Source: Eledone cirrhosa
Lineage: Eukaryota
Direction of reading: 5' to 3'
Assembly: GCA_964016885.1 (NCBI GenBank)
Contig: OZ024752.1
Span: 5,394,001 to 5,458,000, forward strand
DNA length: 64,000 nt
Made by a program: the position numbers and the translations under genes
Notes under the pieces: model-generated
Told to the model about the DNA's origin: nothing
Databases searched by the model: none
Seen by the model: the letters and a program-made list of their open reading frames with translations, nothing else
Shown here: positions 7,001 through 62,988 of the stretch, one piece after another
Numbering within the stretch: position 1 is the stretch's first letter
How the letters are laid out: each line of letters begins with the position of its first letter

Positions 7001-7592
7001 CCTTGAAACTTGCTAGTTTCATACCACCTCAACACTTAATTCCCTTACCTCTCCTTGTTGTGTCCAGGCCTCACACTAACCACTACCCTCAGTCCTTCGT
7101 ACCCACAAATTTATATTATGGAACTCAACTCCTCTTCATGTCTTTCCAGTTGGAGTGGACATGAACAATCTTAAACAAAACACCAATAGCATCAATCTCT
7201 TTGGTCCCTGAAGACCTGTTAAGGCCTTGGGAAATGTCCCTTCTTACAGACCTACCAAGTAAAACAATAAATACTTACTTTTAGGAGTGTTTGGATCATT
7301 AACATAAATATCCCTGGCAGCAGCAGAGGCTTGATCTATAAGAGATGAAATGAAAAATGAGTAAATGTACTGCTTGTGGTGCTTGATATCTGAAGGCTAC
7401 AGGGAAATGAAGTGGGCATGATCATATGGATGTGTGATGTTAATGTACATGATTGACAAAGCATGGATGAGTTGAGAGGAAAACTATGTATAAGAGGAAT
7501 CAAATGGAAGATGATCATTGAAGCAAGAAATGTTAAGAGAGACAAGAGGAAGAAAGATGCAGTAGAGAAAGACTGAGGAGGGCTGAGGAGGT
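4047..7592 (+). repeat. Local segmental duplication, copy 1 (contains an RTE insertion)
   Basis: Near-identical to 9099-10795 apart from the 4331-5903 insertion, the 7232-7469 segment and small indels; the same spurious ORFs appear twice in the track. Confidence 0.93.
4331..5903 (+). mobile_element. 5'-truncated RTE-clade LINE
   Basis: AFVDLEKAFDRV, GVHQGSVLSPLLF, YADD, LRWYGHVMRM, GRPKMTW; 3' UTR ending in a (TGA)n tail; frameshifting duplication near 4580-4610. Confidence 0.93.
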
Positions 7593-7681
7593 GAATGGAG
7601 AGCGACAAATAGACAAAAGTATTTTCCAAGCCTAAAGAAGAAATCAGTTTGGTTATTCTTCCTCTTCTTATTATTATTAGT

Positions 7682-8089: not shown

Positions 8090-8226
8090 TTTCTACAGCT
8101 GAGTAAACTGGAGCAATGTGAAATAAAGTGTTTTGCACAAAGAAACAACACATCACCCGGTCTGAGAATTGAACTCACAACCTTTCGATTGCAAGGCCAA
8201 TGCTCTAACCACTAAGCCATGTGCCT
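8090..8226 (-). mobile_element. tRNA-derived SINE, second family
   Basis: Reverse complement reads ggcttagtggttagagc...gagttcaattctcagacc...cactttatttcacattgctcc, similar to 11596-11715 (+). Confidence 0.65.
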
Positions 8227-10795: not shown

Positions 10796-11595
10796 GATTT
10801 GGAGAGATCTGATCTCAGCAGACTGAAGCTCAGAGAAAAGATTATGAATGTATGATATAAAGTAGAAGGAAACTGTGCTTGAAAGGTCCCATACAGCCCA
10901 TGAAAGCATGAAAAAATAGATGTAAAAAGGAACTGACCAAAGGTCAACAATCTGTTGGGGGAGAGAGGAAGAAATACAAAGACAAAGTTGCTGTCATCTT
11001 GTGGAAATGGAACATTGCTCCTACAGGTGTGGAAACTCTTCCTGCAGATTGAAGCAGATGGCTAATCCTTTGACATCAAGCTTGCGAAATTATTGAGACA
11101 AAGTGTTGTCAATGGCTCAATGGATGTTGAGTGAAGTGTGGTGCAACCACTGCTAGATCACCTCCAACACCCAGCTAATTGATTACTTGACTGACTTGTG
11201 GGAAACTCTGCTACTGGGCTTTTGGTCTCTGCTCACATCAGAACTGAGGGAACTCCAAGCTAAGTTAATTTCACATTTAGAAAAATAACATCTAAATCAT
11301 TTTCTAAATGTATGTATAAAAACGAAGAATATAGCCAAATACCTTGCATTTCTAACTGTTGATTATGCCTGTCACCCACAGAGTCAATATTGTTAATTGC
11401 TGAAAAACAAATCAATAGAATATATTAACTCAAATAGAAATGACAAAATTATGAAGAAACACTAAAGAAATTTCTTTTTAAATTAGCAACTCCTTTTTTT
11501 ATCTTTCAGACTCTTCACCTTATTTCATAATCTATTTTATAACATCTCTTCACATGGGCATGGTATACAACATGTGTTGGTATACATCAGATTGT

Positions 11596-18185: not shown

Positions 18186-21100
18186 TTTACGTCCGCTTTT
18201 TCCTGCTTGGAAGGGTGGGATGGGTCCTCTTCAGCCCAGCATCTCTCCATATGTCACGGTCCTTCGTCATCTCCTTTGTGAGCATCAACGATCTGAGGTC
18301 AGCTCTCACCACCTCCGCCCATGTTTCCCAGGTCTTCCCCTAGTGCATCTTCCTTCCACTGGGATCACCTGGCACTGCCACTTCTTCACCCAGTGGTCAT
18401 CCCTCATGCGCATCAAATGGCTATACCAACAGTCTTCTCTCCTACACACTACAGTTTATTTCTTTTATACACAGTTTCTGTCTCACTTTATTCATGCTTG
18501 GTCTTTCATGCACATTGTTACATATATAGTAACAATTCCTAGCTGTGTATACAGAGCTAACAAAATCAATGTTTGTCCTGTACATGGTAGTGGGATGGTT
18601 AAGTTGAAATATCTAGCCATATATGAAAATCCCTTAGCCATTATCAAATCATTAAAAACTTCTTTCTATGTACAGAAATCAGGTCAAAAGATGATTCAAT
18701 GATGTGCAAAAATGAGATGGAGGAGAGCTTCAACCAGATTCCCTCATAAGCAAAGAGATAAGTGGGAGAGCACACTATTAACAGAAATAGAGAGGTAGTG
18801 TATTTAAAATAGATATCTTTCTTTATTTGCCACAGGGGTGTACAAAAATGGGACATTACAAGACGTGACGGTGGGGGTTTTACATAAAATCTTTAACAAT
18901 GTTCAATAACAAACTATATAAAAATAAAACAATTGAAATCCCCTTTAGGGTGGGGTAGGGGGGCGGGCGACGCTACTGCGGGGTTGTTTTACACCTCGTG
19001 GATAGAACAACCCTCAACACCAGGAACACGTTTTGTAGGTGTTCCCGTCTTCCCTCTGTTTAATGTATTTAAGTTAGATAGTGGTTGCAACAGAATTATT
19101 AGGCCTAGACTAGTCATTGGCATTATAACAACTATTGCTATTTCAATCTACTATATCATAATCAGGACTGATTAATGAATAAAAGAATCTTTTCTATGAG
19201 AACCTCCCTTGAAGACTATCTCCATAACAAGTGACTGCGGCTACATTATTATGGCTGGTGACTTTAAGGGACATGTTAGGAAGTACCAGGATGGCTATTC
19301 TGGAGTAATTGGTGATGAATATGGCTCAAGATGGACTGGGCACTTTTTGTTGTGTCGCCATCATGACCACTTTACAGCGTGGGCTGGGCACTTTTTGTTG
19401 TGTTGCCATCACGACCACTTTACAGTGTGGGCTGGGCACTTTGTGTCAACAACAACACCACCACCACCACCACCACCACCATCACCACTGTATTACAAAG
19501 GTATTTATGTCACGGTAATTGATAAAGCTTTAAAATATGTAAAAATATACCAACCTCTTATCCGGTGGCATCTATAAATAAGAATTCCCAAAATTATTAA
19601 CAATATTACCATTGCTACAGTACAACCAATAATTAGTGTCAAATGATTTTCTGTTTTTACTGAAAATATATATAAAATAAACCAAACATCATCAAACAAG
19701 AAAAATAATTAAAGTAAGGATTATGATGAATCATTCACTAGTCATAATTTGTCTAATATTTTGCAAAGTTCAGTGGTGTATTGGTAGAGGTGCATGGTAG
19801 TGCAGCTGCACACTCCCAAAAATTGTTGTCTGAAAATTATGAATGTCTGTTAGGAGAATACACTTATGGCAAGGTTAGTATATGCATTGGTATGAGTTGG
19901 ACAATCTTTTATATGTCTCAAACCTGTATCATCTTTTCTTTAAGTCACAATCTTTTAAAATCATGTTTGAATATTTCTTTTTCTTTAACCAGTCTAGTGT
20001 CAGACTCGTCAAATTCTTGCCAGCTTGGAAAGCAAATATATGATGGTGATGATGATGATTATCTTCATAACATTGTTTCATTTTGTTACAAATTAGTTAT
20101 CTTCAGGATGAAGTGGTTGGGAGGACTCTTAAGTCCCATCAGGGATATGATAATCTCTGAAGTGCTGCTACCATAATACACTACATAAAATGGTTGGTGT
20201 TGAGAAGGGCATCAGGTCATAGAAAACTTGCCAATTATCCTTATTATTGGAACTTTCCACTGTAAACTCATTATCACAATGTCATTTCTTTCTACTTATA
20301 TTCTTGATTACAATTAATGTATCAATATAAGAAATAACTTTTTATAAACTTTTATTGAATCTTACTGAATGAATATTGTTGAAGGTCTTAAAGTTTTTAT
20401 GGTCGAATCTGTCAAAAAATTATGACAAATGTTCTGGAGACTACATGATTAAAAGTCAACATGAAATTTGCAGTTTGTTCAAATCCAAAAATAACTGGAT
20501 CTTTTGACATTTTGCATAGTGATAAATTTCAGTTTATCAACCAGAATATATTTTAATAATTATGGTCTAGACCAAGAATGAAGAAACCTTCACATGTATT
20601 CAAATTTGTAACTGCCTAATGTCAAAGTCTCTTAAATCACATATGAACAAAATCAGTTTAATCCTTAAGACTAAAACATCATCATCTTCATCATTATCAT
20701 CATTTTATGTCTGTTGTATCAATATAATAATCTTTAAGAGCATAAATTTTTAACAAGAAGACACAGTCAACTCCTGTACTTGGTATTCTTTTATTTACTA
20801 TATAGGGGGACGGATTGTCAGGATCGGTAGGGCATCAGACAATTTGGGCAATCTACAGGTGCAATCTACAGATGCAAGCTCAGAGCAGGTCTTTTCACTC
20901 GGAGTATGTTCGCCACTCTCACCCCCACCTTTCAAAAAACTGGTTTAAAAGTCACTCTCCACCCTGATTTTCCTCATCAAGGGAAACCTGTAAAAGTTAA
21001 TCAGGACTTCACCAAAGAAGAAAGTGCTTGTCTTCAATCCTTTTAAATGTGTCCACCACATGACATCATATGTCATGGCCACCACACAGATAAAAACTGC

Positions 21101-22885: not shown

Positions 22886-25033
22886 ATACATAAACACACA
22901 CACACATATATACCCTCACACACAGATATTCATATACACCCACATATATATTTTTAAAATTAACTTACCATATACTGTGATGTGGTACATGCTACCATGT
23001 ACATTAGATATGCAAATAATACTCATGTTGTCTTCCTGTATAGTTATATTAATGATAGTCAATGTACAGATAGTATTTTGACAACTAGTTATTTGACGGT
23101 TGCCAAAATATTTATCAAAGCCTGGGTCATTCAATCCATAATATACAGCAATAAGTGATCCATCTCCAGTACGCCAATCTGTAATATCTCCCCTCTTTCT
23201 TACACATTTCAATGTGAAGTTTTTATCTTCTATAGCATTTGGTGTTTCAGAACTTGGGTAAAGATTCTTCCCAGTCTCATCTAAAAACACAAATTAAGAC
23301 GAGATAAAATAAGAATTAATCCAAAATTTAAGAGAAATTTTAACAATAAATTGAAACAAGCCTAATAGTTCATATTCCATTTGTGTGAAGACAGGCAGGG
23401 CTGTGCTGTTTAGCCCATGGAAGCAGGGAAAGCAGATGCAAAGTATGTTGATGATGATGATGATGATAGTGATGATGAGCATAGTATTAGGGGGAGTGGG
23501 GTGTTATATGGAATTGACTTAGATTTTTAGTTGTTTCTTATGTTACATCACCAGTAGCAGCAGCACCACGACCCCCCCAACATCATCATCACTACTACTA
23601 CCACCACCACCAGCACCATCCACCCCCACCACATTCATAGCCATCACTACCACCATCACAACCGCCGCCGCCGTCATCACCACCACCACCACCAACACCA
23701 TCATCAGCATCACCACCAACATCATCACCATCACCATCACCACCACCATCACTGCCAACACCATCATCACCACCACCACCACCACCACCACCACCATCAT
23801 CACCATCACCACCAACATCATCACCACCACCATCACCATCACCACCACCATCACTGCCAACACCATCATCACCATCACCACCACCACCACCATCACTGCC
23901 AACACCACCATCATCATAAATAATACATAAAATAAATTATATTCAGATATAAGATAAATCTAAATGTGCTAAACATGTCACAAAAGAGATTTTATGGAGG
24001 GAAGAGTAAATGGAATGATTCTGAGCAAGAATCATGAGATACAAAATTCAAGTTCAATTTATAATGTGTCACATTAATAGATTTAATAAATGATTTTAAT
24101 GACAATATATAGAGGGCTGATAACTTATTAATATAACTGTTTCTTGTAAAAATATGCTCTTACCAATATACAATAAAATTGTGGTATTAGATAATAATCA
24201 AACTGTAATATCCTGTATCTGTGTGTAGACATACAAAATATATTGTAATACTTTATAAGATCTACAAAATCATTGTTGCTTTATAAGAGAAAGGCAACTT
24301 TCTAACAATAGGAAGTTGAGGGAACAGTGTTAGTTTTTTCAACATTGTTGCTGATATTGTGAGAAATAGCAGCCAAATCTCACCTTACTGTTTTTCAGAT
24401 CATTGTTTAAATCTAGTGACATGAAAATAATATATTAGATAAGGGTCATCTTAACTAAACTGTAATCCTTATAGGTTTGCTTCATTAGGGATGACTTAGG
24501 AATACATAACAACAAATAGGGAGAGGGAAAACAGATTTTATCAAAGAACAAATGAATAATTGAGTAGTTTCTACTGTGTTTTCGGATGAACCAATTAACT
24601 TCAACTGTAAACATTATTTTTAGTTGTTTTACTTCTTTTACATCTAAAATTGAGTTTATGCATTGAATTCTTCAAATCCAGAATTATTCAGGAATAATGT
24701 ACCTGGTGACAATCAAAAGAAGCGAGGTAGGTGTAAAAGCCAAACTCACTATCTTCAATTTGGTATTCATGCCAACCCTTATCTATGGCCATAAATCTTG
24801 GGTAATGACCAAAATACAATCGCAAATACAAGTGGCCGAAATGGGGTTCCTCTGAAGGGTCTTTGGAGTAACGTTACTCGATAGAGTGTATAGCTCAGAG
24901 ATCAGAGAGTCACTCCAGGTAGAACTGCTACTTCTCCAGATTGAGAGATCACAGCTCTGATAATATGGGCATATGGTTAGAATGTCTCAGGGAAGAATTG
25001 GTGAGCAAGAAGAAGGAGGAGAAGAAGAAGGAG

Positions 25034-25085
<52 letters not shown>

Positions 25086-27505
25086 ATGTGTTGATTTTTG
25101 ACAGCTATGGTATAAATGTCTGTAATTTCAAGCTATCTATATTGTCAGGATATTTGTTAGGGAAAAAATGTGAAATGTTATTATGTAAACATTATTTATT
25201 TCAATATAATAAAGAAATATTATTAGAAAGATGAAAACACAAATATAAATGATATAAATAATTATAATTTAGTACTTACTAAATAATGCACGTACTACAA
25301 ATACCATGGTCGCAGTCTTGTTGTGACAGGAAATGTATAAGTTAGTAGCGGAAAGAAGGGTGAAGTGTAAAATATTTGGTTTACTGGACTCCACAGATGC
25401 GTTAAACTTATTATGTACAATAGGCTTCCAATTAGGACTATTAGTTTGCACACCTCGCACCTCCCAGGATGTAATTGTCTCTGGATCATCAATAGGACAT
25501 TGGAAAATTAGGTTTTCATTTACCCTGAGAAATCTTGTACCAACTCTTGTGGTAGGAACTGAAAAAGAACAAAACAAAATATATATATATATACAATTGA
25601 TTACGTTCTTTAATTTTTCTAATGGAAGAGGAACAATTTGAAATAAATTAAAATATTATGGATTACACAGAATTAATTGGAAAATAAATGTTTTATGTAT
25701 ATTTTAAAGCTAAATACAGATATAGTTATTGAGGACTAATGGAATGGAATAAAGTATGAATGTCAGGTTGAAATCCTGCCAATATTTCACAATGGATATC
25801 GAAAATATCACATTGGTGTGAAAGACTAAAAAACTATAATGACATCTACTGATAATAGGAAACAATGTTTGTAAAATAAATGGAAATATCAGCCTGAAAG
25901 CAGACATTCGAATATTAAAGGACATACAACTAATGAACTGGGCATAATTTTGGTCAGAACTGGGCATCCCACAAGATGGTCATCCTGGTGACATAAGAAA
26001 AAAGCACCCTGTCCATCATGTAACATGGATGTGCTGGTGACACCAAAAAGGTATCCAGTCTGCCCTGTAAGATGGTTGTGCTGGTGACATGATGAAAAAG
26101 CACTAAGTCCAGCCTGTTAGATGACCTTTCTGGTGCCACAATAAAAGCACCCAGTCCACACTGTAACAGGTTTGGCCTTAGAAAGATCATCCAGATGAAG
26201 AACCAAACCAAAATACAAATACAAGACATGGTCATTTTATATAATAAACTACTGGATATTGGAGGAAACAGTGTGATATTTCACACACTCCACTTTATAC
26301 AATAAACTACTGGATATTGGAGGAAACAGTGTGATATTTCACACATTCCACCTTATACAATAAACTACTGGATATTGGAGGAAACAGTGTGATATTTCAC
26401 ACATTCCACCTTATACAATAAACTACTGGATATTGGAGGAAACAGTGTGATATTTCACACATTCCACCTCATACAATAAACTACTGGATATTGGAGGAAA
26501 CAGTGTGATATTTCACACATTCCACCTCATACAATAAACTACTGGATATTGGAGGAAACAGTGTGATATTTCACACATTCCACCTTATACAATAAACTAC
26601 TGGATGTTGGAGGAAACAGTGTGATATTTCACACATTCCACCTTATACAATAAACTACTGGATGTTGGAGGAAACAGTGTGATATTTCACACATTCCACC
26701 TTATACAATAAACTACTGGATATTGGAGGAAACAGTGTGATATTTCACACATTCCACCTTATACAATAAACTACTGGATATTGGAGGAAACAGTGCGATA
26801 TTTCACACATTCCACCTCATACAATAAACTACTGGATATTGGAGGAAACAGTGTGATATTTCACACATTCCACCTTATACAATAAACTACTGGATATTGG
26901 AGGAAACAGTGTGATATTTCACACATTCCACCTTATACAATAAACTACTGGATATTGGAGGAAACAGTGTGATATTTCACACATTCCACCTTATACAATA
27001 AACTACTGGATATTGGAGGAAACAGTGTGATATTTCACACATTCCACCTTATACAATAAACTACTGGATGTTGGAGGAAACAGTGTGATATTTCACACAT
27101 TCCACCTCATACAATAAACTACTGGATATTGGAGGAAACAGTGTGATATTTCACACATTCTACCTTATACAATAAACTACTGGATATTGGAGGAAACAAT
27201 GTGATATTTCACACACTCCACCTTATACAATAAACTACTGGATGGTGTTGTTATATGCACCATTTTCTAATTTTGTCGTGCGTAATGCTAAGAGCACTAA
27301 TTGAGGTTCTTCGCCACTTTTGAATGCCTTTTTTATTGTCTGTATATTTCTCTCAAAGTGTATAGCTCAGAGATCAGAGAGTCACTCCAGGTAGAACTGC
27401 TACTTCTCCAGATTGAGAGATCACAGCTCTGATAATATGGGCATATGGTTAGAATGTCTCAGGGAAGAATTGGTGAGCAAGAAGAAGGAGGAGAAGAAGA
27501 AGGAG

Positions 27506-27572
<67 letters not shown>

Positions 27573-27609
27573 CATACATATATATATATACATACATATA
27601 TATATATAT

Positions 27610-27654
<45 letters not shown>

Positions 27655-30600
27655 CATATATATATATATGTACATACATATATATATATATATATATGTA
27701 CATATATATATATATATACATATATATACATACATATATATATATATATATACATACATACAAATACATACATATATATATATACATACATACATATATG
27801 GTGGCTGCCAACTCGTTTTCGAGTACGGCCACTACTTTATATTCATGTAGGAGAACCCATACCGATGCGCTGAACGTGTGTGACTTTTTAGTCCAGCCAG
27901 CGACTTGAAAACTCTGGTACAAACATTACACTTGTGATAATCATTGACACATAGTGCTGGTCCCATGTGACAACAAGTGCAGAGAGATCTCCAGATATAA
28001 AGCAATGCCTGTGCCATGAAGCTTTTATAGTGAGCAAAGGCAGTGCACAAGGCCAGTCCCACTCTCTTGACCAAGATGATATTTACCAAAAAGAAGAACA
28101 AGTCAACATCATTTGATACCATCAGGGTTGCAGGTGTTATATCAGAGTTTTCCTTCTCCTAGAATTCTGCCTTGACAAAGGCTAAGGGATCATCTCTCCC
28201 GGTGATTTTGGATGGCCATTGACTCTTAAGAGCTCCTTTGCCCTTTGACAGGTTTTGTTTTTTAGTCCTGCAGGATGTCCAAAGTCACCCTCCTCACCAA
28301 GAAACCTTGGTGGGGTTGCCAGTTTAGTCGCCAACAACCCGACCATGAGACAGGTTGTACTGGGATACATGTTACCAGTAGCACCAACTGGTGACCTGAC
28401 ATATATATATATATACATACATACAAATACATACATATATATATATACATACATACATATACATACATACATATACACACAAACGTACATATACACACAA
28501 CCATATATACACACAAACATATATATACATATATATAAACATACATAATATATACATACATATATATACACATACATATATATAAACATACATATATACA
28601 CATACATATATATAAACATACATATATACAAAGATACATAATATATACATACATATATATAAACATACATATATATATACACATACATATATATAAACAT
28701 ACATATATACACATACATATATATACACATACATATATATAAACATACATATATACACATACATATATACAAACATACATATATATACATACATACATAT
28801 ATATACATACACATACATATATATACATAAACACACACACACATATATACCCTCACACACAGATATTCATATACACCCACATATATATTTTTAAAATTAA
28901 CTTACCATATACTGTGATGTGGTACATGCTACCATGTACACTAGATCTGCAAATAATACTCATGTTGTCTTCCTGTATAGTTATATTAATGATAGTCAAT
29001 GTACAGATAGTATTTTGACAACTAGTTATTTGACGGTTGCCAAAATATTTATCATTGCCTATGTCATTCAATCCAATATATACAGCAATAAGTGATCCAT
29101 CTCCAGTACGCCATATTGTAATATCTCCCCTCTTTCTTACACATTTCAATGTGAAGTTTTTATCTTCTATAGCATTTGGTGTTTCAGAACTTGGGTAAAG
29201 ATTCTTCCCAGTCTCATCTAAAAACACAAATTAAGACGAGATAAAATAAGAATTAATCCAAAATTTAAGAGAAATTTTAACAATAAATTGAAACAAGCCT
29301 AATAGTTCATATTCCATTTGTGTGAAGACAGGCAGGGCTGTGCTGTTTAGCCCATGGAAGCAGGGAAAGCAGATGCAAAGTATGTTGATGATGATGATGA
29401 TGATAGTGATGATGAGCATAGTATTAGGGGGAGTGGGGTGTTATATGGAATTGACTTAGATTTTTAGTTGTTTCTTATGTTACATCACCAGTAGCAGCAG
29501 CACCACGACCCCCCCAACATCATCATCACTACTACTACCACCACCACCAGCACCATCGACCCCCACCACATTCATAGCCATCACTACCACCATCACAACC
29601 GCCGCCGCCGTCATCACCACCACCACCACCAACACCATCATCAGCATCACCACCAACATCATCACCATCACCACCACCATCACTGCCAACACCATCATCA
29701 CCACCACCACCACCACCACCACCACCAACACCATCATCACCATCACCACCAACATCATCACCACCACCATCACCATCACCACCACCATCACTGCCAACAC
29801 CACCACCACCACCACCACCATCACTGCCAACACCACCATCATCATAAATAATACAAAAAATAAATTATATTCAGATATAAGATAAATCTAAATGTGCTAA
29901 ACATGTCACAAAAGAGATTTTATGGAGGGAAGAGTAAATGGAATGATTCTGAGCAAGAATCATGAGATACAAAATTCAAGTTCAATTTATAATGTGTCAC
30001 ATTAATAGATTTAATAAATGATTTTAATGACAATATATAGAGGGCTGATAACTTATTAATATAACTGTTTCTTGTAAAAATATGCTCTTACCAATATACA
30101 ATAAAATTGTGGTATTAGATAATAATCAAACTGTAATATCCTGTATCTGTGTGTAGACATACAAAATATATTGTAATACTTTATAAGATCTACAAAATCA
30201 TTGTTGCTTTATAAGAGAAAGGCAACTTTCTAACAATAGGAAGTTGAGGGAACAGTGTTAGTTTTTTCAACATTGTTGCTGATATTGTGAGAAATAGCAG
30301 CCAAATCTCACCTTACTGTTTTTCAGATCATTGTTTAAATCTAGTGACATGAAAATAATATATTAGATAAGGGTCATCTTAACTAAACTGTAATCCTTAT
30401 AGGTTTGCTTCATTAGGGATGACTTAGGAATACATAACAACAAATAGGGAGAGGGAAAACAGATTTTATCAAAGAACAAATGAATAATTGAGTAGTTTCT
30501 ACTGTGTTTTCGGATGAACCAATTAACTTCAACTGTAAACATTATTTTTAGTTGTTTTACTTCTTTTACATCTAAAATTGAGTTTATGCATTGAATTCTT

Positions 30601-30951
30601 CAAATCCAGAATTATTCAGGAATAATGTACCTGGTGACAATCAAAAGAAGCGAGGTAGGTGTAAAAGCCAAACTCATTATCTTCAATTTGGTATTCATGC
30701 CAACCCTTATAAATCTTGGGTAATGACCAAAATACAATCGCAAATACAAGTGGCCGAAATGGGGTTCCTCTGAAGGGTCTTTGGAGTAACGTTACTCGAT
30801 AGAGTGTATAGCTCAGAGATCAGAGAGTCACTCCAGGTAGAACTGCTACTTCTCCAGATTGAGAGATCACAGCTCTGATAATATGGGCATATGGTTAGAA
30901 TGTCTCAGGGAAGAATTGGTGAGCAAGAAGAAGGAGGAGAAGAAGAAGGAG

Positions 30952-31007
<56 letters not shown>

Positions 31008-34000
31008 ATGTGTTGATTTTTGACAGCTATGGTATAAATGTCTGTAATTTCAAGCTATCTATATTGTCAGGATATTTGTTAGGGAAAAAATGTGAAATGT
31101 TATTATGTAAACATTATTTATTTCAATATAATAAAGAAATATTATTAGAAAGATGAAAACACAAATATAAATGATATAAATAATTATAATTTAGTACTTA
31201 CTAAATAATGCACGTACTACAAATTCCATGGTCGCAGTCTTGTTGTGACAGGAAATGTATGAGTTAGTAGCGGAAAGAAGGGTGAAGTGTAAAATATTTG
31301 GTTTACTGGACTCCACAGATGCGTTAAACTTATTATGTACAATAGGCTTCCAATTAGGACTATTAGTTTGCACACCTCGCACCTCCCAGGATGTAATTGT
31401 CTCTGGATCATCAATAGGACATTGGAAAATTAGGTTTTCATTTACCCTGAGAAATCTTGTACCAACTCTTGTGGTAGGAACTGAAAAAGAACAAAACAAA
31501 ATATATATATATATACAATTGATTACGTTCTTTAATTTTTCTAATGGAAGAGGAACAATTTGAAATAAATTAAAATATTATGGATTACACAGAATTAATT
31601 GGAAAATAAATGTTTTATGTATATTTTAAAGCTAAATACAGATATAGTTATTGAGGACTAATGGAATGGAATAAAGTATGAATGTCAGGTTGAAATCCTG
31701 CCAATATTTCACAATGGATATCGAAAATATCACATTGGTGTGAAAGACTAAAAAACTATAATGACATCTACTGATAATAGGAAACAATGTTTGTAAAATA
31801 AATGGAAATATCAGCCTGGAAGCAGACATTCGAATATTAAAGGTCATACAACTGCTGAACTGGGCATAATTTTGGTCAGAACTGGGCATCCCACAAGATG
31901 GTCATCCTGGTGACATAAGAAAAAAGCACCCTGTCCATCATGTAACATGGATGTGCTGGTGACACCAAAAAGGTATCCAGTCTGCCCTGTAAGATGGTTG
32001 TGCTGGTGACATGATGAAAAAGCACTAAGTCCAGCCTGTTAGATGACCTTTCTGGTGCCACAATAAAAGCACCCAGTCCACACTGTAACAGGTTTGGCCT
32101 TAGAAAGATCATCCAGATGAAGAACCAAACCAAAATACAAATACAAGACATGGTCATTTTATATAATAAACTACTGGATATTGGAGGAAACAGTGTGATA
32201 TTTCACACACTCCACTTTATACAATAAACTACTGGATATTGGAGGAAACAGTGTGATATTTCACACACTCCACCTTATACAATAAACTACTGGATATTGG
32301 AGGAAACAGTGTGATATTTCACACATTCCACCTTATACAATAAACTACTGGATGTTGGAGGAAACAGTGTGATATTTCACACATTCCACCTTATACAATA
32401 AACTACTGGATATTGGAGGAAACAGTGTGATATTTCACACATTCCACCTTATACAATAAACTACTGGATATTGGAGGAAACAGTGTGATATTTCACACAC
32501 TCCACCTTATACAATAAACTACTGGATATTGGAGGAAACAGTGTGATATTTCACACATTCCACCTTATACAATAAACTACTGGATGTTGGAGGAAACAGT
32601 GCGATATTTCACACATTCCACCTTATACAATAAACTACTGGATGTTGGAGGAAACAGTGTGATATTTCACACATTCCACCTTATACAATAAACTACTGGA
32701 TGTTGGAGGAAACAGTGTGATATTTCACACATTCCACCTTATACAATAAACTACTGAATGTTGGAGGAAGCAGTGTGATATTTCACACACTCCACCTTAT
32801 ACAATAAACTACTGGATGTTGGAGGAAACAGTGCGATATTTCACACATTCCACCTTATACAATAAACTACTGGATATTGGAGGAAACAGTGTGATATTTC
32901 ACACACTCCACCTCATACAATAAACTACTGGATATTGGAGGAAACAATGTGATATTTCACACACTCCACCTTATACAATAAACTACTGGATATTGGAGGA
33001 AACAGTGTGATATTTCACACATTCCACCTTATGTGATATTTCACACATTCCACCTTATACAATAAACTACTGGATATTGGAGGAAACAGTGTGATATTTC
33101 ACACACTCCACCTTATACAATAAACTACTGGATGTTGGAGGAAACAGTGTGATATTTCACACACTCCACCTTATACAATAAACTACTGGATATTGGAGGA
33201 AACAGTGTGATATTTCACACATTCCACCTTATACAATAAACTACTGGATATTGGAGGAAACAGTGTGATATTTCACACACTCCACCTTATACAATAAACT
33301 ACTGGATGTTGGAGGAAACAGTGTGATATTTCACACACTCCACCTTATACAATAAACTACTGGATATTGGAGGAAACAGTGTGATATTTCACACACTCCA
33401 CCTTATACAATAAACTACTGGATATTGGAGGAAACAGTGTGATATTTCACACACTCCACCTTATACAATAAACTACTGGATGTTGGAGGAAACAGTGTGA
33501 TATTTCACACATTCCACCTTATACAATAAACTACTGGATATTGGAGGAAACAGTGTGATATTTCACACACTCCACCTTATACAATAAACTACTGGATATT
33601 GGAGGAAACAGTGTGATATTTCACACATTCCACCTCATACAATAAACTACTGGATGTTGGAGGAAACAATGTGATATTTCACACATTCCACCTTATACAA
33701 TAAACTACTGGATATTGGAGGAAACAGTGTGATATTTCACACATTCCACCTTATACAATAAACTACTGGATGTTGGAGGAAACAGTGTGATATTTCACAC
33801 ATTCCACCTTATACAATAAACTACTGGATATTGGAGGAAACAGTGTGATATTTCACACATTCCACCTTATACAATAAACTACTGGATATTGGAGGAAACA
33901 GTGTGATATTTCACACATTCCACCTTATACAATAAACTACTGGATGTTGGAGGAAACAGTGTGATATTTCACACATTCCACCTTATACAATAAACTACTG

Positions 34001-35193
34001 GATATTGGAGGAAACAGTGTGATATTTCACACACTCCACCTTATACAATAAACTACTGGATATTGGAGGAAACAGTGTGATATTTCACACATTCCACCTC
34101 ATACAATAAACTACTGGATATTGGAGGAAACAATGTGATATTTCACACATTCCACCTTATACAATAAACTACTGGATATTGGAGGAAACAGTGTGATATT
34201 TCACACATTCCACCTTATACAATAAACTACTGGATGTTGGAGGAAACAGTGTGATATTTCACACATTCCACCTTATACAATAAACTACTGGATATTGGAG
34301 GAAACAGTGTGATATTTCACACATTCCACCTTATACAATAAACTACTGGATATTGGAGGAAACAATGTGATATTTCACACATTCCACCTTATACAATAAA
34401 CTACTGGATATTGGAGGAAACAGTGTGATATTTCACACATTCCACCTTATACAATAAACTACTGGATGTTGGAGGAAACAGTGTGATATTTCACACATTC
34501 CACCTTATACAATAAACTACTGGATATTGGAGGAAACAGTGTGATATTTCACACATTCCACCTTATACAATAAACTACTGGATATTGGAGGAAACAGTGT
34601 GATATTTCACACATTCCACCTCATACAATAAACTACTGGATATTGGAGGAAACAGTGCGATATTTCACACACTCCACCTTATACAATAAACTACTGGATA
34701 TTGGAGGAAACAGTGTGATAATTCACACATTCCACCTTATACAATAAACTACTGGATGTTGGAGGAAACAGTGTGATATTTCACACATTCCACCTTATAT
34801 AATAAACTACTGGATGTTGGAGGAAACAGTGTGATATTTCACACATTCCACCTTATACAATAAACTACTGGATATTGGAGGAAACAGTGTGATATTTCAC
34901 ACACTCCACCTTATACAATAAACTACTGGATGGTGTTGTTATATGCACCATTTTCTAATTTTGTCGTGCGTAATGCTAAGAGCACTAATTGAGGTTCTTC
35001 GCCACTTTTGAATGCCTTTTTTATTGTCTGTATATTTCTCTCAAAGTGTATAGCTCAGAGATCAGAGAGTCACTCCAGGTAGAACTGCTACTTCTCCAGA
35101 TTGAGAGATCACAGCTCTGATAATATGGGCATATGGTTAGAATGTCTCAGGGAAGAATTGGTGAGCAAGAAGAAGGAGGAGAAGAAGAAGGAG

Positions 35194-35274
<81 letters not shown>

Positions 35275-35311
35275 CATACATATATATATATACATACATA
35301 TATATATATAT

Positions 35312-35356
<45 letters not shown>

Positions 35357-38300
35357 CATATATATATATATGTACATACATATATATATATATATATATG
35401 TACATATATATATATATATACATATATATACATACATATATATATATATACATACATACAAATACATACATATATATATATACATACATACATATATGGT
35501 GGCTGCCAACTCGTTTTCGAGTACGGCCACTACTTTATATTCATGTAGGAGAACCCATACCGATGCGCTGAACGTGTGTGACTTTTTAGTCCAGCCAGCG
35601 ACTTGAAAACTCTGGTACAAACATTACACTTGTGATAATCATTGACACATAGTGCTGGTCCCATGTGACAACAAGTGCAGAGAGATCTCCAGATATAAAG
35701 CAATGCCTGTGCCATGAAGCTTTTATAGTGAGCAAAGGCAGTGCACAAGGCCAGTCCCACTCTCTTGACCAAGATGATATTTACCAAAAAGAAGAACAAG
35801 TCAACATCATTTGATACCATCAGGGTTGCAGGTGTTATATCAGAGTTTTCCTTCTCCTAGAATTCTGCCTTGACAAAGGCTAAGGGATCATCTCTCCCGG
35901 TGATTTTGGATGGCCATTGACTCTTAAGAGCTCCTTTGCCCTTTGACAGGTTTTGTTTTTTAGTCCTGCAGGATGTCCAAAGTCACCCTCCTCACCAAGA
36001 AACCTTGGTGGGGTTGCCAGTTTAGTCGCCAACAACCCGACCATGAGACAGGTTGTACTGGGATACATGTTACCAGTAGCACCAACTGGTGACCTGACAT
36101 ATATATATATATACATACATACAAATACATACATATATATATATACATACATACATATACATACATACATATACACACAAACGTACATATACACACAACC
36201 ATATATACACACAAACATATATATACATATATATAAACATACATAATATATACATACATATATATACACATACATATATATAAACATACATATATACACA
36301 TACATATATATAAACATACATATATACAAAGATACATAATATATACATACATATATATAAACATACATATATATATACACATACATATATATAAACATAC
36401 ATATATACACATACATATATATACACATACATATATATAAACATACATATATACACATACATATATACAAACATACATATATATACATACATACATATAT
36501 ATACATACACATACATATATATACATAAACACACACACACATATATACCCTCACACACAGATATTCATATACACCCACATATATATTTTTAAAATTAACT
36601 TACCATATACTGTGATGTTGTACATGCTACTATGTACACTAGATATGCAAATAATACTCATGTTGTCTTCCTGTATAGTTATATTAATGATAGTCAATGT
36701 ACAGATAGTATTTTGACAACTAGTTATTTGACGGTTGCCAAAATATTTATCAAAGCCTGGGTCATTCAATCCATAATATACAGCAATAAGTGATCCATCT
36801 CCAGTAAACCAATATGTATAATCTCCCCTCTTTCTTACACATTTCAATGTGAAGTTTTTATCTTCTATAGCATTTGGTGTTTCAGAACTTGGGTAAAGAT
36901 TCTTCCCAGTCTCATCTAAAAACACAAATTAAGACGAGATAAAATAAGAATTAATCCAAAATTTAAGAGAAATTTTAACAATAAATTGAAACAAGCCTAA
37001 TAGTTCATATTCCATTTGTGTGAAGACAGGCAGGGCTGTGCTGTTTAGCCCATGGAAGCAGGGAAAGCAGATGCAAAGTATGTTGATGATGATGATGATG
37101 ATAGTGATGATGAGCATAGTATTAGGGGGAGTGGGGTGTTATATGGAATTGACTTAGATTTTTAGTTGTTTCTTATGTTACATCACCAGTAGCAGCAGCA
37201 CCACGACCCCCCCAACATCATCATCACTACTACTACCACCACCACCAGCACCATCCACCCCCACCACATTCATAGCCATCACTACCACCATCACAACCGC
37301 CGCCGCCGTCATCACCACCACCACCACCAACACCATCATCAGCATCACCACCAACATCATCACCATCACCATCACCACCACCATCACTGCCAACACCATC
37401 ATCACCACCACCACCACCACCACCACCACCATCATCACCATCACCACCAACATCATCACCACCACCATCACCATCACCACCACCATCACTGCCAACACCA
37501 TCATCACCATCACCACCACCACCACCATCACTGCCAACACCACCATCATCATAAATAATACATAAAATAAATTATATTCAGATATAAGATAAATCTAAAT
37601 GTGCTAAACATGTCACAAAAGAGATTTTATGGAGGGAAGAGTAAATGGAATGATTCTGAGCAAGAATCATGAGATACAAAATTCAAGTTCAATTTATAAT
37701 GTGTCACATTAATAGATTTAATAAATGATTTTAATGACAATATATAGAGGGCTGATAACTTATTAATATAACTGTTTCTTGTAAAAATATGCTCTTACCA
37801 ATATACAATAAAATTGTGGTATTAGATAATAATCAAACTGTAATATCCTGTATCTGTGTGTAGACATACAAAATATATTGTAATACTTTATAAGATCTAC
37901 AAAATCATTGTTGCTTTATAAGAGAAAGGCAACTTTCTAACAATAGGAAGTTGAGGGAACAGTGTTAGTTTTTTCAACATTGTTGCTGATATTGTGAGAA
38001 ATAGCAGCCAAATCTCACCTTACTGTTTTTCAGATCATTGTTTAAATCTAGTGACATGAAAATAATATATTAGATAAGGGTCATCTTAACTAAACTGTAA
38101 TCCTTATAGGTTTGCTTCATTAGGGATGACTTAGGAATACATAACAACAAATAGGGAGAGGGAAAACAGATTTTATCAAAGAACAAATGAATAATTGAGT
38201 AGTTTCTACTGTGTTTTCGGATGAACCAATTAACTTCAACTGTAAACATTATTTTTAGTTGTTTTACTTCTTTTACATCTAAAATTGAGTTTATGCATTG

Positions 38301-38668
38301 AATTCTTCAAATCCAGAATTATTCAGGAATAATGTACCTGGTGACAATCAAAAGAAGCGAGGTAGGTGTAAAAGCCAAACTCACTATCTTCAATTTGGTA
38401 TTCATGCCAACCCTTATCTATGGCCATAAATCTTGGGTAATGACCAAAATACAATCGCAAATACAAGTGGCCGAAATGGGGTTCCTCTGAAGGGTCTTTG
38501 GAGTAACGTTACTCGATAGAGTGTATAGCTCAGAGATCAGAGAGTCACTCCAGGTAGAACTGCTACTTCTCCAGATTGAGAGATCACAGCTCTGATAATA
38601 TGGGCATATGGTTAGAATGTCTCAGGGAAGAATTGGTGAGCAAGAAGAAGGAGGAGAAGAAGAAGGAG

Positions 38669-38722
<54 letters not shown>

Positions 38723-41700
38723 ATGTGTTGATTTTTGACAGCTATGGTATAAATGTCTGTAATTTCAAGCTATCTATATTGTCAGGATATTTGTTAGGGA
38801 AAAAATGTGAAATGTTATTATGTAAACATTATTTATTTCAATATAATAAAGAAATATTATTAGAAAGATGAAAACACAAATATAAATGATATAAATAATT
38901 ATAATTTAGTACTTACTAAATAATGCACGTACTAGAAATACCATGGTCGCAGTCTTGTTGTGACAGGAAATGTGAAAGTATCCAGCGGAAAAAAGGGTGA
39001 AGTGTAAAATATTTGGTTTACTGGACTCCACAGATGCGTTAAACTTATTATGTACAATAGGCGTCCAATTAGGACTTTTAGTGTACACACCTCCCACCTT
39101 CCAGGATGTAATTGTCTCTGGATCATCAATAGGACATTGGAAAATTAGGTTTTCATTTACCCTGAGAAATCTTGTACCAACTCTTGTGGTAGGAACTGAA
39201 AAAGAACAAAACAAAATATATATATATATACAATTGATTACGTTCTTTAATTTTTCTAATGGAAGAGGAACAATTTGAAATAAATTAAAATATTATGGAT
39301 TACACAGAATTAATTGGAAAATAAATGTTTTATGTATATTTTAAAGCTAAATACAGATATAGTTATTGAGGACTAATGGAATGGAATAAAGTATGAATGT
39401 CAGGTTGAAATCCTGCCAATATTTCACAATGGATATCGAAAATATCACATTGGTGTGAAAGACTAAAAAACTATAATGACATCTACTGATAATAGGAAAC
39501 AATGTTTGTAAAATAAATGGAAATATCAGCCTGGAAGCAGACATTCGAATATTAAAGGTCATACAACTGCTGAACTGGGCATAATTTTGGTCAGAACTGG
39601 GCATCCCACAAGATGGTCATCCTGGTGACATAAGAAAAAAGCACCCTGTCCATCATGTAACATGGATGTGCTGGTGACACCAAAAAGGTATCCAGTCTGC
39701 CCTGTAAGATGGTTGTGCTGGTGACATGATGAAAAAGCACTAAGTCCAGCCTGTTAGATGACCTTTCTGGTGCCACAATAAAAGCACCCAGTCCACACTG
39801 TAACAGGTTTGGCCTTAGAAAGATCATCCAGATGAAGAACCAAACCAAAATACAAATACAAGACATGGTCATTTTATATAATAAACTACTGGATATTGGA
39901 GGAAACAGTGTGATATTTCACACACTCCACTTTATACAATAAACTACTGGATATTGGAGGAAACAGTGTGATATTTCACACACTCCACCTTATACAATAA
40001 ACTACTGGATATTGGAGGAAACAGTGTGATATTTCACACATTCCACCTTATACAATAAACTACTGGATGTTGGAGGAAACAGTGTGATATTTCACACATT
40101 CCACCTTATACAATAAACTACTGGATATTGGAGGAAACAGTGTGATATTTCACACATTCCACCTTATACAATAAACTACTGGATATTGGAGGAAACAGTG
40201 TGATATTTCACACACTCCACCTTATACAATAAACTACTGGATATTGGAGGAAACAGTGTGATATTTCACACATTCCACCTTATACAATAAACTACTGGAT
40301 GTTGGAGGAAACAGTGCGATATTTCACACATTCCACCTTATACAATAAACTACTGGATGTTGGAGGAAACAGTGTGATATTTCACACATTCCACCTTATA
40401 CAATAAACTACTGGATGTTGGAGGAAACAGTGTGATATTTCACACATTCCACCTTATACAATAAACTACTGGATGTTGGAGGAAGCAGTGTGATATTTCA
40501 CACACTCCACCTTATACAATAAACTACTGGATGTTGGAGGAAACAGTGTGATATTTCACACATTCCACCTCATACAATAAACTACTGGATGTTGGAGGAA
40601 ACAGTGTGATATTTCACACATTCCACCTTATACAATAAACTACTGGATGTTGGAGGAAACAGTGTGATATTTCACACATTCCACCTTATACAATAAACTA
40701 CTGGATGGTGTTGTTATATGCACCATTTTGTAATTTTGTCGTGCGTAATGCTAAGAGCACTAATTGAGGTTCTTCGCCACTTTTGAATGCCTTTTTTATT
40801 GTCTGTATATTTCTCTCAACCATGCCATTTGCTTGATGATAATGTGGGCTTGTTTTCGTGTGATAAAAATGCCAATTTTTTGCAAACTTTTTAAATTCAG
40901 CCGAATTGAACTCTGGACCGTTGTCACTGACAACTGTTTGTGGAATGCCGAATTTGGCAAAAGTTTCTTTTATTATTTTGATTACAGTTTTTGACTGGCA
41001 ATCATTTATTTCGTGTAAATCAAAAAATCTTGTTGTATAGTCAATGATTGTGACATACGAATTTCCAGACAGGTGAAATATGTCTGTACCTACTTTGGTC
41101 CATGGTGTAGTAGGTATTTCATGATTTATTAGTGGTTCGGCTGGTTGTTGATTTTTCTAATCGATGCAGTATGAGCATGTGTTAATCATGTCTTTGATTT
41201 GAGCGTTAATGCCGGGCCAGTATATACATTCCTTGGCTCGCTCTGTGCATTTTTCAATACCCATGTGTCCGGTATGTATTTCCTGTAGAGCTTCTCTACG
41301 TAATGACTTAGGTACAATGATTCTTGGACCTTTTAGAACGAGGCCATTGACGATCGATATTTCATCACGAACAGAGACGAATGGTTTAATGTTTGTTGGT
41401 ATTTTGTCTTTTGGGGGCCATTCTGTTCTTGTATATGTGATGAGTGTCTGTAGTGACGAGTCGTGTGCAGTGGCTTCTTTGTACTCGTTTAATTTAGTGT
41501 CGGTTATGGGGTAATTTTTTATTACTGCATGTATGTGCGATTTCATATCTTCGTCTGATACTTCTGGAGTATTTTGTTCAAGGTATGCACGTGATAGAGT
41601 ATCTGCAACAACTGATTCTTTACCAGGTATGTAGTTTAGGTCAAAATCGTATCTTTGTAATTGCTAGTAGAAATCTTTGGATTCTGGGGGGGCATTTAGT

Positions 41701-47700: not shown

Positions 47701-50700
47701 ACATTCCACCTTATACAATAAACTACTGGATATTGGATGAAACAGTGTGATATTTCACACATTTCACCTTATACAATAAACTACTGGATGTTGGAGGAAA
47801 CAGTGTGATATTTCTCACATTCCACCTTAAACAATAAACTACTGGATATTGGAGGAAACAGTGTGATATTTCACACATTTCACCTTATACAAGAAACTAC
47901 TGGATGTTGGAGGAAACAGTGTGATACTTCACACATTTCACCTTATACAATTAACTACTGGATATTGGAGGAAACAGTGTGATATTTCACACATTCCACC
48001 TTATACAATAAACTACTGGATGTTGGAGGAAACAGTGTGATATTTCACACATTTCACCTTATACAATAAACTACTGGATGTTGGAGGAAACAGTGTGATA
48101 TTTCTCACATTCCACCTTAAACAATAAACTACTGGATGTTGAAGGAAACAGTTTGGTCTTTCACAAAGTGAAAGTAGAGTATATTTAGAACAGATCTGTT
48201 AATTACATCAAGTCAATTAATTACCTACCTATACTGTATTGATAAAATTGTTAGCACATTTAAAATACCTGTAATAAGTAGTTATGTTTCTTTTTCTACG
48301 AAGTTTATATTCTATCATACTAACAATACCTTCTGTGGTTGATCAACTAAAGTACCAGTCAAGTATTGGAGATCAATTTAATATAACTAAAAGGCAACAA
48401 TCTGTCCTGACAAATCTTTCCCATTACATTTGTATAGATGTGTTTTGATATATATTGTCATGTTTTTTCTACATTCTCTATCTCACTTTTTACATCTTTT
48501 TCTGTTTCCTTCTTTACAAATTCTGTGTTCAACCAACTGCATAATATCTAATTATATAATGGTTCACTTAATACAATCCTGAATCTATACAGTAGTTGTG
48601 ATAACAGTTGTAAACAGTCAGGTTCAAATAACTATATAGTTGCCTAATCTGTAAGACATAGTAACAAAAGGAATCATGTGTGTGAGAAATATAATACCCA
48701 TGTCTGGAACAACATTAATCCTAGATCTGTTTGATCAGTGTTAACTTTAGGATCAAATAACAGAATCACTGATGAGTTTCTTAATTCTATCAACAAATGA
48801 GACTTTCTCATAAGTAATTGTTTTGAAAAATAAATTCGATCTTTATATTAGAAACATATTACCTACCGTAGCTGTGTAATTGTGAGATTTGTGTGATTAA
48901 CAAAAGTTTCAAAAATAACAGATTCAATTCCATTATCTGTATATAAAAGAAAAATGTTGATATGAATAACAATATTTTCTACAAATAAAGAACATCTAGT
49001 CAATGAAAGGACAATGTAAAGAATCATTTGACATTAATGGTTTCTGATTTAGGCACAAGGTCAACAATTATGGGTGAGGGGAATATCAATTAAATCAATC
49101 TCAGTGCATTACTGGTACTTTATTTTGTTGACAATGTAAGGATGAAAGGCAAAGTTAACCTTGGTAGGATTTGAACTCAGAACATAGCAGGCCATAATTA
49201 TATGCCACAATAATTATATGCCACATAATTATATGACCCCCAAATACAGGTCCATAATCCATTACTGATATAAAAAGATTATATTTTACAGGGTAACTCT
49301 TGTTGACATGTTAAAAAATAATAATTGATTTATGTCTGGACTATATGAAGGTGTCTGACTGCCACTCATGGATACTAGAGTCACTATGCCTTGTTAAATT
49401 TCCATGACCATAGCTGAAGCCATTCAAAAACTGACTGTTATATGTCCACTCAGCTGTATTGAATAACTACTTCAGTTTTAGTCACAGACAGAATTGGTGT
49501 ATTGACAGGAATATTTCATGGTGACAGCTTGTCTGTAATAATATTTGTGCTGACTGTGACTCTATTGTTAGCCCTGTTACATGCTTGTCAGTATAGAAGA
49601 CAGAAAGGTTAATATCACTTATACCTTTTTCATGATGTCCTTAAGTACCAAGAGAAAGTTACATCAGGTCACAGCATCTCACAGGTCATAATAACAGAAG
49701 TACAATAGATTTGGTAGTAAACTGTGGTAAATTGTCAAGAGGAGACTATGTATGTCAATGGCCTGTCTATTTCACCTATCTCCAGTGGTGAATGCTACAA
49801 GTAACTTGGAATAGATGAGAATATTATATATGATGTTTGTTCCAAATGTAAAGGTACTGATGTTTCATTTAAATGTGTATTAGACATATATGAAATTACA
49901 AGTTAGCTCCTTCAAAATACAGTAGTTCTAATATTTATTCCGTTGATCATAGCAGCCTGGAAGTAATTTTCTGTGAGTGTCCTTATCTCATCAGTTTCAA
50001 TTTTTTTTCAACAGTCCCAAAATGATGACCCTTTAGCTGCAATTTCAACTTAGGAAAGAGGTAGAAACCACACAGAGCTCAATCTGAGCTGTTGTAAAGA
50101 TGTGGAATAATGGGAATGTTTTTCTTTGCTAGAAATTCTCAAATTGAAAATGCTGTGTTTGGGCACTACCTTTGCACAAATTTTTCACATGTGCAAATGG
50201 TGTGTTAAAATTCTGTGAACTCCATTTTAATCCAAGCACATAATCAGCAATCTTTCCTCATCACCCCTCATACTACTTCTACATTGTGTTCATTTGTTGA
50301 CGAGATTGACCTTCCAGAATGAGATCAGTCTTCAACATTTTCCTGGCCCTGTTTGAAAGCTGTGTACCTCTTAAAAACTTTAGGAGATTAGTATCGGTGT
50401 ACATATAACATAAAATAAAAGACAGTAAATACCGGTGTGTGTTGTAATAATGTTTTACTTCATAGAAGTCAAAGGTATTAAATATTAAGGATTCGTTACC
50501 CGATGGTCACAACTCCAGGCTGAAGTTGGTAGAGAAAAGAAGAGATCTTTTCTAGCTGGTATTAACATGTTAGGCTCTCAGGCTGCAAGTTGCATTGTTC
50601 TTGGTAGCGAAGGATTATCAAAAATGAATCATCTCAAGCTAAGGTCGCAGGTGTTACCACTTCGGAAATCAGGAGGCAAGAGGGAGATATCATGGTGACC

Positions 50701-62846: not shown

Positions 62847-62945
<99 letters not shown>

Positions 62946-62988
62946 CACATACACACATACATATACATATATACATACATATACATAT

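Follow-up and report, generated by a model that had tools for sequence, protein, structure and literature searches.

Multi-nucleotide codon differences among the tandem modules of a predicted immunoglobulin-like receptor gene in Eledone cirrhosa

Organization of the gene

The window analysed here is a 64,000-nucleotide stretch of the Eledone cirrhosa genome (GCA_964016885.1, contig OZ024752.1, positions 5,394,001 to 5,458,000), and it carries a predicted surface receptor gene on the minus strand. Between 22.4 and 40.8 kb the window is a tandem triplication, each copy of which holds a pair of minus-strand exons, B (279 nt) and A (312 nt), both of phase 1-1. The copies are nearly identical in their introns but differ in these exons by short codon swaps, the origin of which is the subject of this report. 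In the direction of the gene, the order is a signal exon, three B+A immunoglobulin (Ig)-like pairs, a transmembrane exon and candidate tail exons with tyrosine motifs (Table 1). The succession signal-B3-A3-B2-A2-B1-A1-transmembrane reads through 650 codons without a stop, and the predicted signal-peptide and transmembrane exons are both conserved at the two paralogous loci described below.

The candidate tail exons carry I-D-Y-L-E-V/L, which fits the consensus of an immunoreceptor tyrosine-based inhibitory motif, and Y-V-N; no full immunoreceptor tyrosine-based activation motif was seen in them. A further candidate exon of 36 nt, with I-D-Y-L-E-V, lies ∼3.2 kb before the first base of the window. 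The tail region (window 5901-11399 and the sequence before base 1) consists of tandem 4-6 kb units with 57-nt and 36-nt tyrosine-motif exons, present as 1+1 in the window gene and as 4+4 and 3+3 at the other two loci.

Table 1. Features of the predicted receptor gene and its surroundings (window positions).
Feature	Position	Strand	Basis or remark
Predicted signal-peptide exon, ATG at 48933, phase 1 end	48867..48936	-	N-termini of octopus homologues in tblastn; scan for AG/GT
Exon B3, Ig-like domain, phase 1-1	38917..39195	-	Pfam ig E=0.031, under cut-off
Exon A3, V-set-like Ig domain, phase 1-1	36604..36915	-	
Exon B2	31202..31480	-	B2 variants found in contigs of DNA-like runs
Exon A2	28906..29217	-	A2 patches found in contigs of DNA-like runs
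Exon B1	25280..25558	-	joined to A1 in one X4 contig
Exon B1 variable patches	25425-25463 (codons 33-45), 25335-25355 (69-75), 25296-25304 (86-88)	-	
Exon A1	22969..23280	-	one X4 contig spans all of A1, zero differences
Exon A1 variable patches	23171-23185 (codons 33-37), 23117-23140 (48-55), 22982-23011 (91-100)	-	
Predicted transmembrane exon, phase 1-1	19555..19659	-	60% identity to P0002 transmembrane stretch, 30 aa, E=5.8e-5
Candidate cytoplasmic exon, 57 nt	11343..11399	-	in-frame AG/GT exon conserved at 3/3 loci
Candidate cytoplasmic exon, Tyr-x-Asn motif	7279..7335	-	3-4 copies at paralogous loci
Junction 1, module copies 1/2	27240..28905	.	against junction 2: 0 differences, 3 blocks, 1,372 bases
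Junction 2, module copies 2/3	34928..36603	.	
58-bp satellite block, intron upstream of B1	26299..27227	.	∼16 units by span
Other 58-bp satellite blocks	32221-34915, 39936-40690, 44285-48121	.	∼46, 13 and 66 units by span

Codon differences among the three copies

Seven multi-nucleotide codon swaps had been listed in the original prediction for this DNA, and all seven are present between the tandem copies, read on the minus strand. Those of exon A are GAT/ATA at codon 35 (23177-23179 in copy 1), CGT/TTT at codon 37, TAT/ATT at codon 48, CCA/ATA at codon 53 and TTT/AAT at codon 55, to which ATT/TAT at codon 33 can be added; those of exon B are CAA/TAC at codon 38 and ACT/GGA at codon 72. Altogether 33 of the 585 in-frame bases vary among the copies (17 columns in exon A, 16 in exon B). 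They fall in 22 codons, none of them purely silent (0/22) and nine of them multi-nucleotide. The prediction that these patches lie within near-identical DNA also holds: the introns differ at only 7 of 2,528 sites (a count that leaves out a CAC repeat and a microsatellite) and the junctions at 0 of 1,372. Copies 2 and 3 differ by 32 exon bases and by 3/2,528 intron bases.

An even spread of the changes across the exons would give 1.7 codons with two or three variable bases; nine are observed, a number that none of 200,000 shuffles reached. When the changes are confined to the 55 codons that vary within the family, 5.5 such codons are expected (P=0.029), and when they are confined to the 26 codons with at least three family states the expectation is 10.0 (P=0.89). 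Much of the clustering thus reflects a few very fast codons.

Tandem copies of this kind might also be produced by assembly error, by allelic haplotypes or by read errors placed in series. Such an account would suit the identity of the junctions over 1,372 bases, the richness of the region in satellite and simple repeats, and the fact that no read across two modules was seen. It is nevertheless hardly credible: there are three distinct copies rather than two, errors would not spare silent sites and introns, and a paralogous locus at 9.2 Mb has its own three-A array with another junction sequence. Moreover, the patches of A1, A2, A3 and B2 are each held by contigs of DNA-like sequencing runs, and so are not consensus errors; these runs (X1-X3) represent one sample, which may be the assembly's own source. 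Other runs add little, with three reads only from the restriction-site associated DNA sequencing run X10 and short pieces only from run X5 (organism B).

The contigs, as far as read by hand, also hold exon variants missing from the assembly (window 23006-23073 and 25262-25491). Among them are an A variant changed at 23038, two B7-like variants against one assembled, and probably further B variants. The pool of variants is therefore larger than the one seen. In the DNA-like runs the window patches have about twice the depth of the B7-like variants, which is only a hint that the array is on both chromosomes.

Domain structure and the variable face

Domain A is modelled as a V-set-like beta-sandwich of seven strands, with a moderate predicted local distance difference test score (pLDDT) of 66.4. 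Three residues are invariant in 20 sequences, C26, W36 and C90, corresponding to the B-strand Cys, the C-strand Trp and the F-strand Cys. In Foldseek, the best match of the model is CAR domain 1 (E=7.6e-4), followed by CRTAM and ZIG-8, and V-set domains dominate the list. Pfam gave no match for A1, A2 or B1, and of the four proteins searched only B3 had one (ig, weak, E=0.031). By its modelled fold, domain A belongs to the immunoglobulin superfamily (IgSF). Domain B, with a model pLDDT of 86.5, is likely to be Ig-like: its best VIA match is CD58 (Z 7.2, root-mean-square deviation 2.7, 82 aligned), then CEACAM15 and nectin-1, all at Z<8. Foldseek returned nothing for it at E<=0.001, the top rows being FimH with a poor TM-score. 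The nearest ESM Atlas clusters, useful as a lead only, are unnamed, some of them molluscan, and are followed by generic Ig clusters. A homodimer prediction for domain A, in which the alignment was not used, scored 0.01 against a mark of 0.32 and is evidence neither way.

The sites under selection are 33, 35, 37, 46, 48, 51, 53, 55, 93, 96 and 100 in domain A, and 38, 72, 74, 75, 84, 86 and 88 in domain B. In the models they lie on or beside the strands assigned as C, C', F and G, commonly at a spacing of two residues, while the predicted B, D and E strands of domain A (22-27, 63-68, 71-76) have zero variable codons in the window copies. The variable codons are therefore predicted to map to the GFCC' sheet, the face that forms the binding surface in many adhesion-type V domains. 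Three Octopus species supply 12 distinct homologous domains, and in these too the same A positions are the more variable ones (3.6 vs 1.9 states, P=0.001).

Paralogous loci and the search for donors

DNA and protein searches of the 3.0 Gb genome, with all candidates scored, found seven A and six B exons, all on the contig of the window (C12). Four A and three B exons lie outside the window, at 9.18-9.21 Mb and 39.29 Mb, within paralogous genes. Their module introns are 0.9-1.4% (9.2 Mb) and 3.1% (39.29 Mb) apart from those of the window, with an overall range of 0.9-3.4%. A single distant A-like exon is located on another contig (G000:C1:171633780-171634040; 30% identity, E=0.003).

The 9.2 Mb locus (G000:C12:9.11-9.23 Mb) is ∼98-99% identical to the window in unique flanks. 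Three A and two B exons form a separate array there, with a different junction sequence, and one further Ig exon is kept; the junction arrangement of the window was sought there and not found. An assembly gap (9212578-9212777) occurs where its third B exon, that of the sixth module, would lie. The 39.3 Mb paralogue (G000:C12:39.20-39.30 Mb) retains all eight Ig exons, as do the longest homologues from Octopus and Argonauta. Despite their different content, the three loci have predicted ectodomains of similar length, with 6, probably 7, and 8 domains. To judge from the exons present, the window and 9.2 Mb genes have lost most of their stalk exons, and each has amplified B+A with different junctions.

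The original prediction proposed either that the patches had been copied from older alleles or paralogues, or that conversion had homogenised everything except the selected codons, and it named a search of the genome and the reads for other exons carrying the patches as a check. Of the 46 window codon states, 16 occur outside the window, and no multi-nucleotide pair is complete there. In five of the ten pairs one end does occur outside, mostly the ancestral state, the states concerned being ATT33, ATA35 (counted in two pairs), AAT55 and TAC38. On-path single-step states exist in the family for four of the ten: TTT (A33), AAT (A48), TTT (A35 ATA/TAT) and TTA (B74). Absence of donors together with stepwise intermediates had been named as the pattern that would speak against copying; no pair has both of its states outside the window (0/10), and intermediates exist for 4/10. 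The best candidates for transfer or old polymorphism are ATA35 (A2, A6), AAC100 (A3, A5, A7) and ACG45 (B3, B7).

As regards copying itself, exchange is supported by the mosaic structure of the copies (see below), while old, diverged donors are not. Micro-conversion from unseen pseudogenes or ancient alleles into young duplicates is the way in which chicken Ig genes are diversified. For the window gene it could draw on the mosaic copies, on the 30 of 46 states unseen elsewhere, and on the assembly gap at the sixth-module B site together with the reads carrying unassembled variants. However, apart from the 30%-identical exon on C1, the genome search found no diverged donor matching the patches including their silent sites beside the seven A and six B exons, none of which is one, in an assembly that may be incomplete. 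The silent sites speak more directly. At amino-acid-invariant codons inside the patches there are 0 silent changes in 13.6 sites in the family, where 7.1 would be expected of neutral old sequence (P=0.0009), and 0 in 16 sites in the window, where 3.9 would be expected (P=0.019). Tracts from old donors could not have avoided silent bases one to three positions away; the patches are therefore not old, depth at these codons is a matter of rate rather than of age, and diverged donors are quite unlikely as the source.

Strength of selection and double hits

A two-class codon model assigns an omega of 25.7 to 17% of codons, with a likelihood-ratio test statistic (LRT) of 140 against omega=1. Three-class fits give an omega of 12-16 for about one third of codons and of 154-179 for 3-5%. 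Left out of the fits are the first nine B codons, where B7 is unalignable, and one inserted A7 codon. Double hits within a codon can mimic selection, and multi-nucleotide mutations are nearly always non-synonymous according to the accessible part of a preprint (10.1101/165969). When double hits are allowed, omega is 18.7 with two classes, or 15-16 and 161-168 with three. A double-hit share of 7-12% of events is favoured, with an LRT of 3.8 and 7.3 for three classes (P=0.025, 0.003) and of 11.3 for two; a triple-hit term gave no gain in fit and was dropped.

The flanks were compared for the same signal. Between the window and the 9.2 Mb locus 10 of 124 mismatches fall in adjacent pairs where 2.7 would be expected, which points to background double mutation. 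The comparison with the 39.3 Mb locus shows no such excess (7/92, with 5.6 expected). Template switching from nearby repeats was considered and rejected: the longest arm at nine swaps is 5.2 bases on average, and 300 random controls give 5.3.

A rival account would trace most of the swaps to mutations that change several nucleotides in a single event. Error-prone repair or a mutator directed to the locus would produce them, and selection would retain those of use. The double-hit share, the adjacent pairs of the 9.2 Mb flank comparison and the non-synonymous nature of such mutations are all in its favour. As the main source it is nonetheless improbable, for most events are single hits, omega remains far above 1 with double hits allowed, and there is no excess of nearby repeats. 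A local mutator is made less likely by the lack of change at silent sites in the patches, and the mosaic introns would be left unexplained.

Exchange among the copies

The original prediction doubted that point mutation could have produced so many differences in such young duplicates, and for single hits since the duplication this doubt is upheld. Simulations (1,500 runs) that allowed only single hits, under a generous omega mixture and with the age sampled from the 7 intron differences, gave means of 15.9 variable columns and 2.3 multi-nucleotide codons. At least 33 columns were reached in 1.7% of runs (P=0.017), at least nine multi-nucleotide codons in 0.5% (P=0.005), and both in 0.3%. Copies 2 and 3 differ by 32 exon bases where ∼7 are expected; copies 1 and 2 differ by 13 where 14 are expected.

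Derived sites, polarised by the paralogues, are shared by all three pairings of copies, alternating along the module. Upstream of B they unite copies 2+3 (25897, 25922), within exon B copies 1+2, and within the B-A intron copies 1+3 (23928); in exon A, codon 37 unites 1+2, codons 55 and 91 unite 1+3, and codon 93 unites 2+3. At 1% divergence, recurrent mutation would hardly produce the conflict among the intron sites. In exon A, the best of 945 trees needs 66 steps where the minimum is 51 (15 extra). Since the copies are mosaics with conflicting intron sites, either exchange or homogenisation of the flanks appears to be needed, and exchange is probably involved. Pasting of patches and homogenisation of flanks around them are equivalent, and indistinguishable in one individual.

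These results bear on the simplest alternative, in which single point mutations were fixed in place by strong selection after the triplication, without exchange. Four of the ten multi-nucleotide pairs do have an on-path state in the family, the clustering is as expected for changes confined to the fastest codons, and copies 1 and 2 fit. The simulation, the excess between copies 2 and 3, the conflicting intron synapomorphies and the favoured double-hit term (LRT 3.8-11.3) all stand against it, and it is very unlikely to be the whole account.

Origin of the codon differences

The most probable explanation is that the swaps are codons of the predicted binding face under diversifying selection, shuffled among young sister copies and alleles, with some double mutation. 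The array would be a very recent product of unequal crossing-over. Replacements on the binding face would be fixed by selection at tens to more than 100 times the neutral rate, with about one third of codons at an omega of ∼15 and ∼5% at ∼160-180. The fastest codons may thus be hit several times within 1-3% neutral divergence, and repeated hits would leave them differing by two or three bases. About one tenth of events, real or apparent double hits, would add jumps. Later exchange, by unequal crossing-over and short conversion, would mix modules and patches among alleles and sister loci. Patches would in this way enter copies with introns only 0.1-0.3% apart, or else the flanks would homogenise while selection keeps the patches. 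Selection rather than conversion is seen as the main maker of the multi-nucleotide differences, because conversion moves codons without explaining their origin.

Several observations weigh against this explanation. The omega fits used fixed trees, ignored recombination and had the window copies among their data, and the sample as a whole comprises 13 exons (7 A, 6 B), apparently from one individual. Between loci there are 13-15 two-base codon differences, where single hits would give ∼6, so that single hits are not the whole explanation. With 30 of 46 states lacking an outside copy, one end outside in five of ten multi-nucleotide pairs and both ends in none, no patch as a whole can be traced from a donor to a recipient. 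Exon B by itself fits a tree almost without conflict, at 4 extra steps over 80. A near-vs-far incompatibility test is modest at the base level (P=0.034 for A, 0.016 for B) and not significant at the codon level (P=0.35 and 0.29). Finally, the strand letters are our own assignment from Cys and Trp positions, on a model of moderate quality for domain A (pLDDT 66).

The product is predicted to be a surface receptor whose GFCC' face takes part in an arms race, and roles as a decoy, as a receptor bound by pathogens or as a self/non-self marker would all fit. A bolder proposal is that this is an undescribed, highly polymorphic octopod family of self/non-self receptors, functionally like Alr of Hydractinia. 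In it, two paralogues would have independently shed stalk domains and stacked three specificity modules per chain, reaching 6 and probably 7 domains where the ancestral number would be 8, and germ-line patch exchange would write new combined specificities. We regard this as doubtful, if conceivable.

Transcript evidence and neighbouring repeats

In one contig of run X4 the final 108 bases of B1 run directly into the complete A1, with exact exon ends and no difference. The kind of this run is not on record, and it is taken as RNA solely from this joint. No A2, A3, B2 or B3 variant is listed among the X4 contigs, nor A7, such contigs showing presence and not absence; two B7-like variants do occur in X4. 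Two bases past the A1/A2-type end there is a branch, consistent with read-through into another B exon. The contig depths of 147, 183 and 206 fit a three-module read-through (multiplicities 2.1, 2.5 and 3.0), as a hint only; they also fit uneven cover of a single module, and depth cannot rank the parts. Both amplified genes (window and 9.2 Mb) lost most stalk exons and stacked B+A with different junctions, which suggests that the modules may be read in one chain.

The 58-bp satellite is present at all three paralogous loci. In the first intron of the window gene it is interrupted by a stretch (40820-44230) that by eye resembles a decayed long terminal repeat retrotransposon (gag/pol-like), common to the 9.2 Mb locus at 98.5%. 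At 60040-63006 on the minus strand lies a 988-codon open frame with endonuclease- and reverse-transcriptase-like sequence, presumably akin to a long interspersed nuclear element, and a partial copy of it, 92% identical, lies at 13470-15894 within the tail region of the gene. Tandem repeats of 66 and 32 bases occupy 54098-54778 and 17780-18070; the former is open for more than 300 codons in both directions.

Relation to known systems

Two word-seeded protein searches returned octopod proteins only (3 and 15 matches); Alr sequences were not compared directly. The homologues are NCBI LOC106874069, LOC106879981, LOC115212114, LOC115212116, LOC118763632 and LOC128247863/4, and one protein of Argonauta hians. 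With B, A and transmembrane segments that are homologous and in the same order, the window gene is a member of this uncharacterised octopod IgSF receptor family (LOC115212114-like). For domain A the identity is 53-60% to Octopus species and 44% to Argonauta. Also shared are the succession from signal through B, A and further Ig domains to a transmembrane segment and a tyrosine-repeat tail, and the set of A positions that vary. In contrast, a repeated B+A pair occurs in none of the 12 homologue sequences read; up to eight distinct Ig domains are present in full-length homologues and in the paralogue at 39.3 Mb, whereas the window gene has lost six and triplicated B+A. No paper on the family was found under six locus identifiers or by topic, in a literature covering few subscription journals and no supplements, and the available octopus passages of the SPLASH preprint do not mention it. 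Nor was any cephalopod polymorphic Ig receptor under such strong selection found in the literature searched.

The closest parallel in process is with Alr1 and Alr2 of Hydractinia. In Alr, new specificities arise by point mutation, and exons are shuffled through conversion or unequal crossing-over (PMC8282982, 10.1101/2022.03.04.482883); the C/C' side of Alr2 is under positive selection (PMC8282982). Both, as described there, are membrane-spanning IgSF proteins of an invertebrate, in which each domain has its own exon, the V-set domains are atypical and the tail carries tyrosine motifs. These features have counterparts in the predicted window gene, which also combines apparent C/C'-side selection with exon exchange. 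On the other hand, Alr paralogues are reported to average 24% identity while the octopus paralogues are 84-94% identical in domain A, and binding and allorecognition are features reported for Alr2. Octopuses, unlike Hydractinia, are not colonial.

Vertebrate paired and pathogen-targeted receptors (CEACAM, Siglec, PIR/LILR, KIR, SIRP) likewise have fast-evolving ligand-binding Ig domains, conversion among paralogues and tails with tyrosine motifs (PMC3210942 in part; the rest as generally known). The nearest folds include the V domains of CEACAM, CD58, nectin and CAR, a likeness that does not establish homology. In the paired receptors, as far as the available text of PMC3210942 goes, conversion homogenises the binding domain, whereas in the octopus the flanks are homogeneous and the binding face differs. 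An activating or inhibitory partner with the same binding domain was not found among the three loci, all of which have a near-same transmembrane exon and the same kinds of tail exon.

The patchwork polymorphism of the major histocompatibility complex (MHC) arises by interallelic micro-conversion, with motifs that are often old and trans-species. Short replacement motifs shared by non-sister alleles at binding residues are common to MHC and the octopus gene; the fold is another one, and where MHC motifs are often old, the silent sites of the octopus gene point to young patches. In Dscam, tandem duplicated Ig exons with variable surface epitopes are chosen by mutually exclusive splicing. The window gene resembles it in having such duplicated exons, but here whole two-domain modules are duplicated in frame, with the 650-codon read-through.

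By analogy, the process appears to be of a kind known from Hydractinia Alr and the paired receptors, with no claim of membership in either family. With introns 0.1-0.3% apart while one protein face is saturated, the array is unusually well suited to telling point mutation, double mutation and conversion apart in nature. Since the mechanism is of a known kind, however, the value lies more in the gene family than in the mutational process. The octopod family is a testable candidate for pathogen recognition or self/non-self discrimination in octopuses, with its predicted contact residues already marked by evolution.

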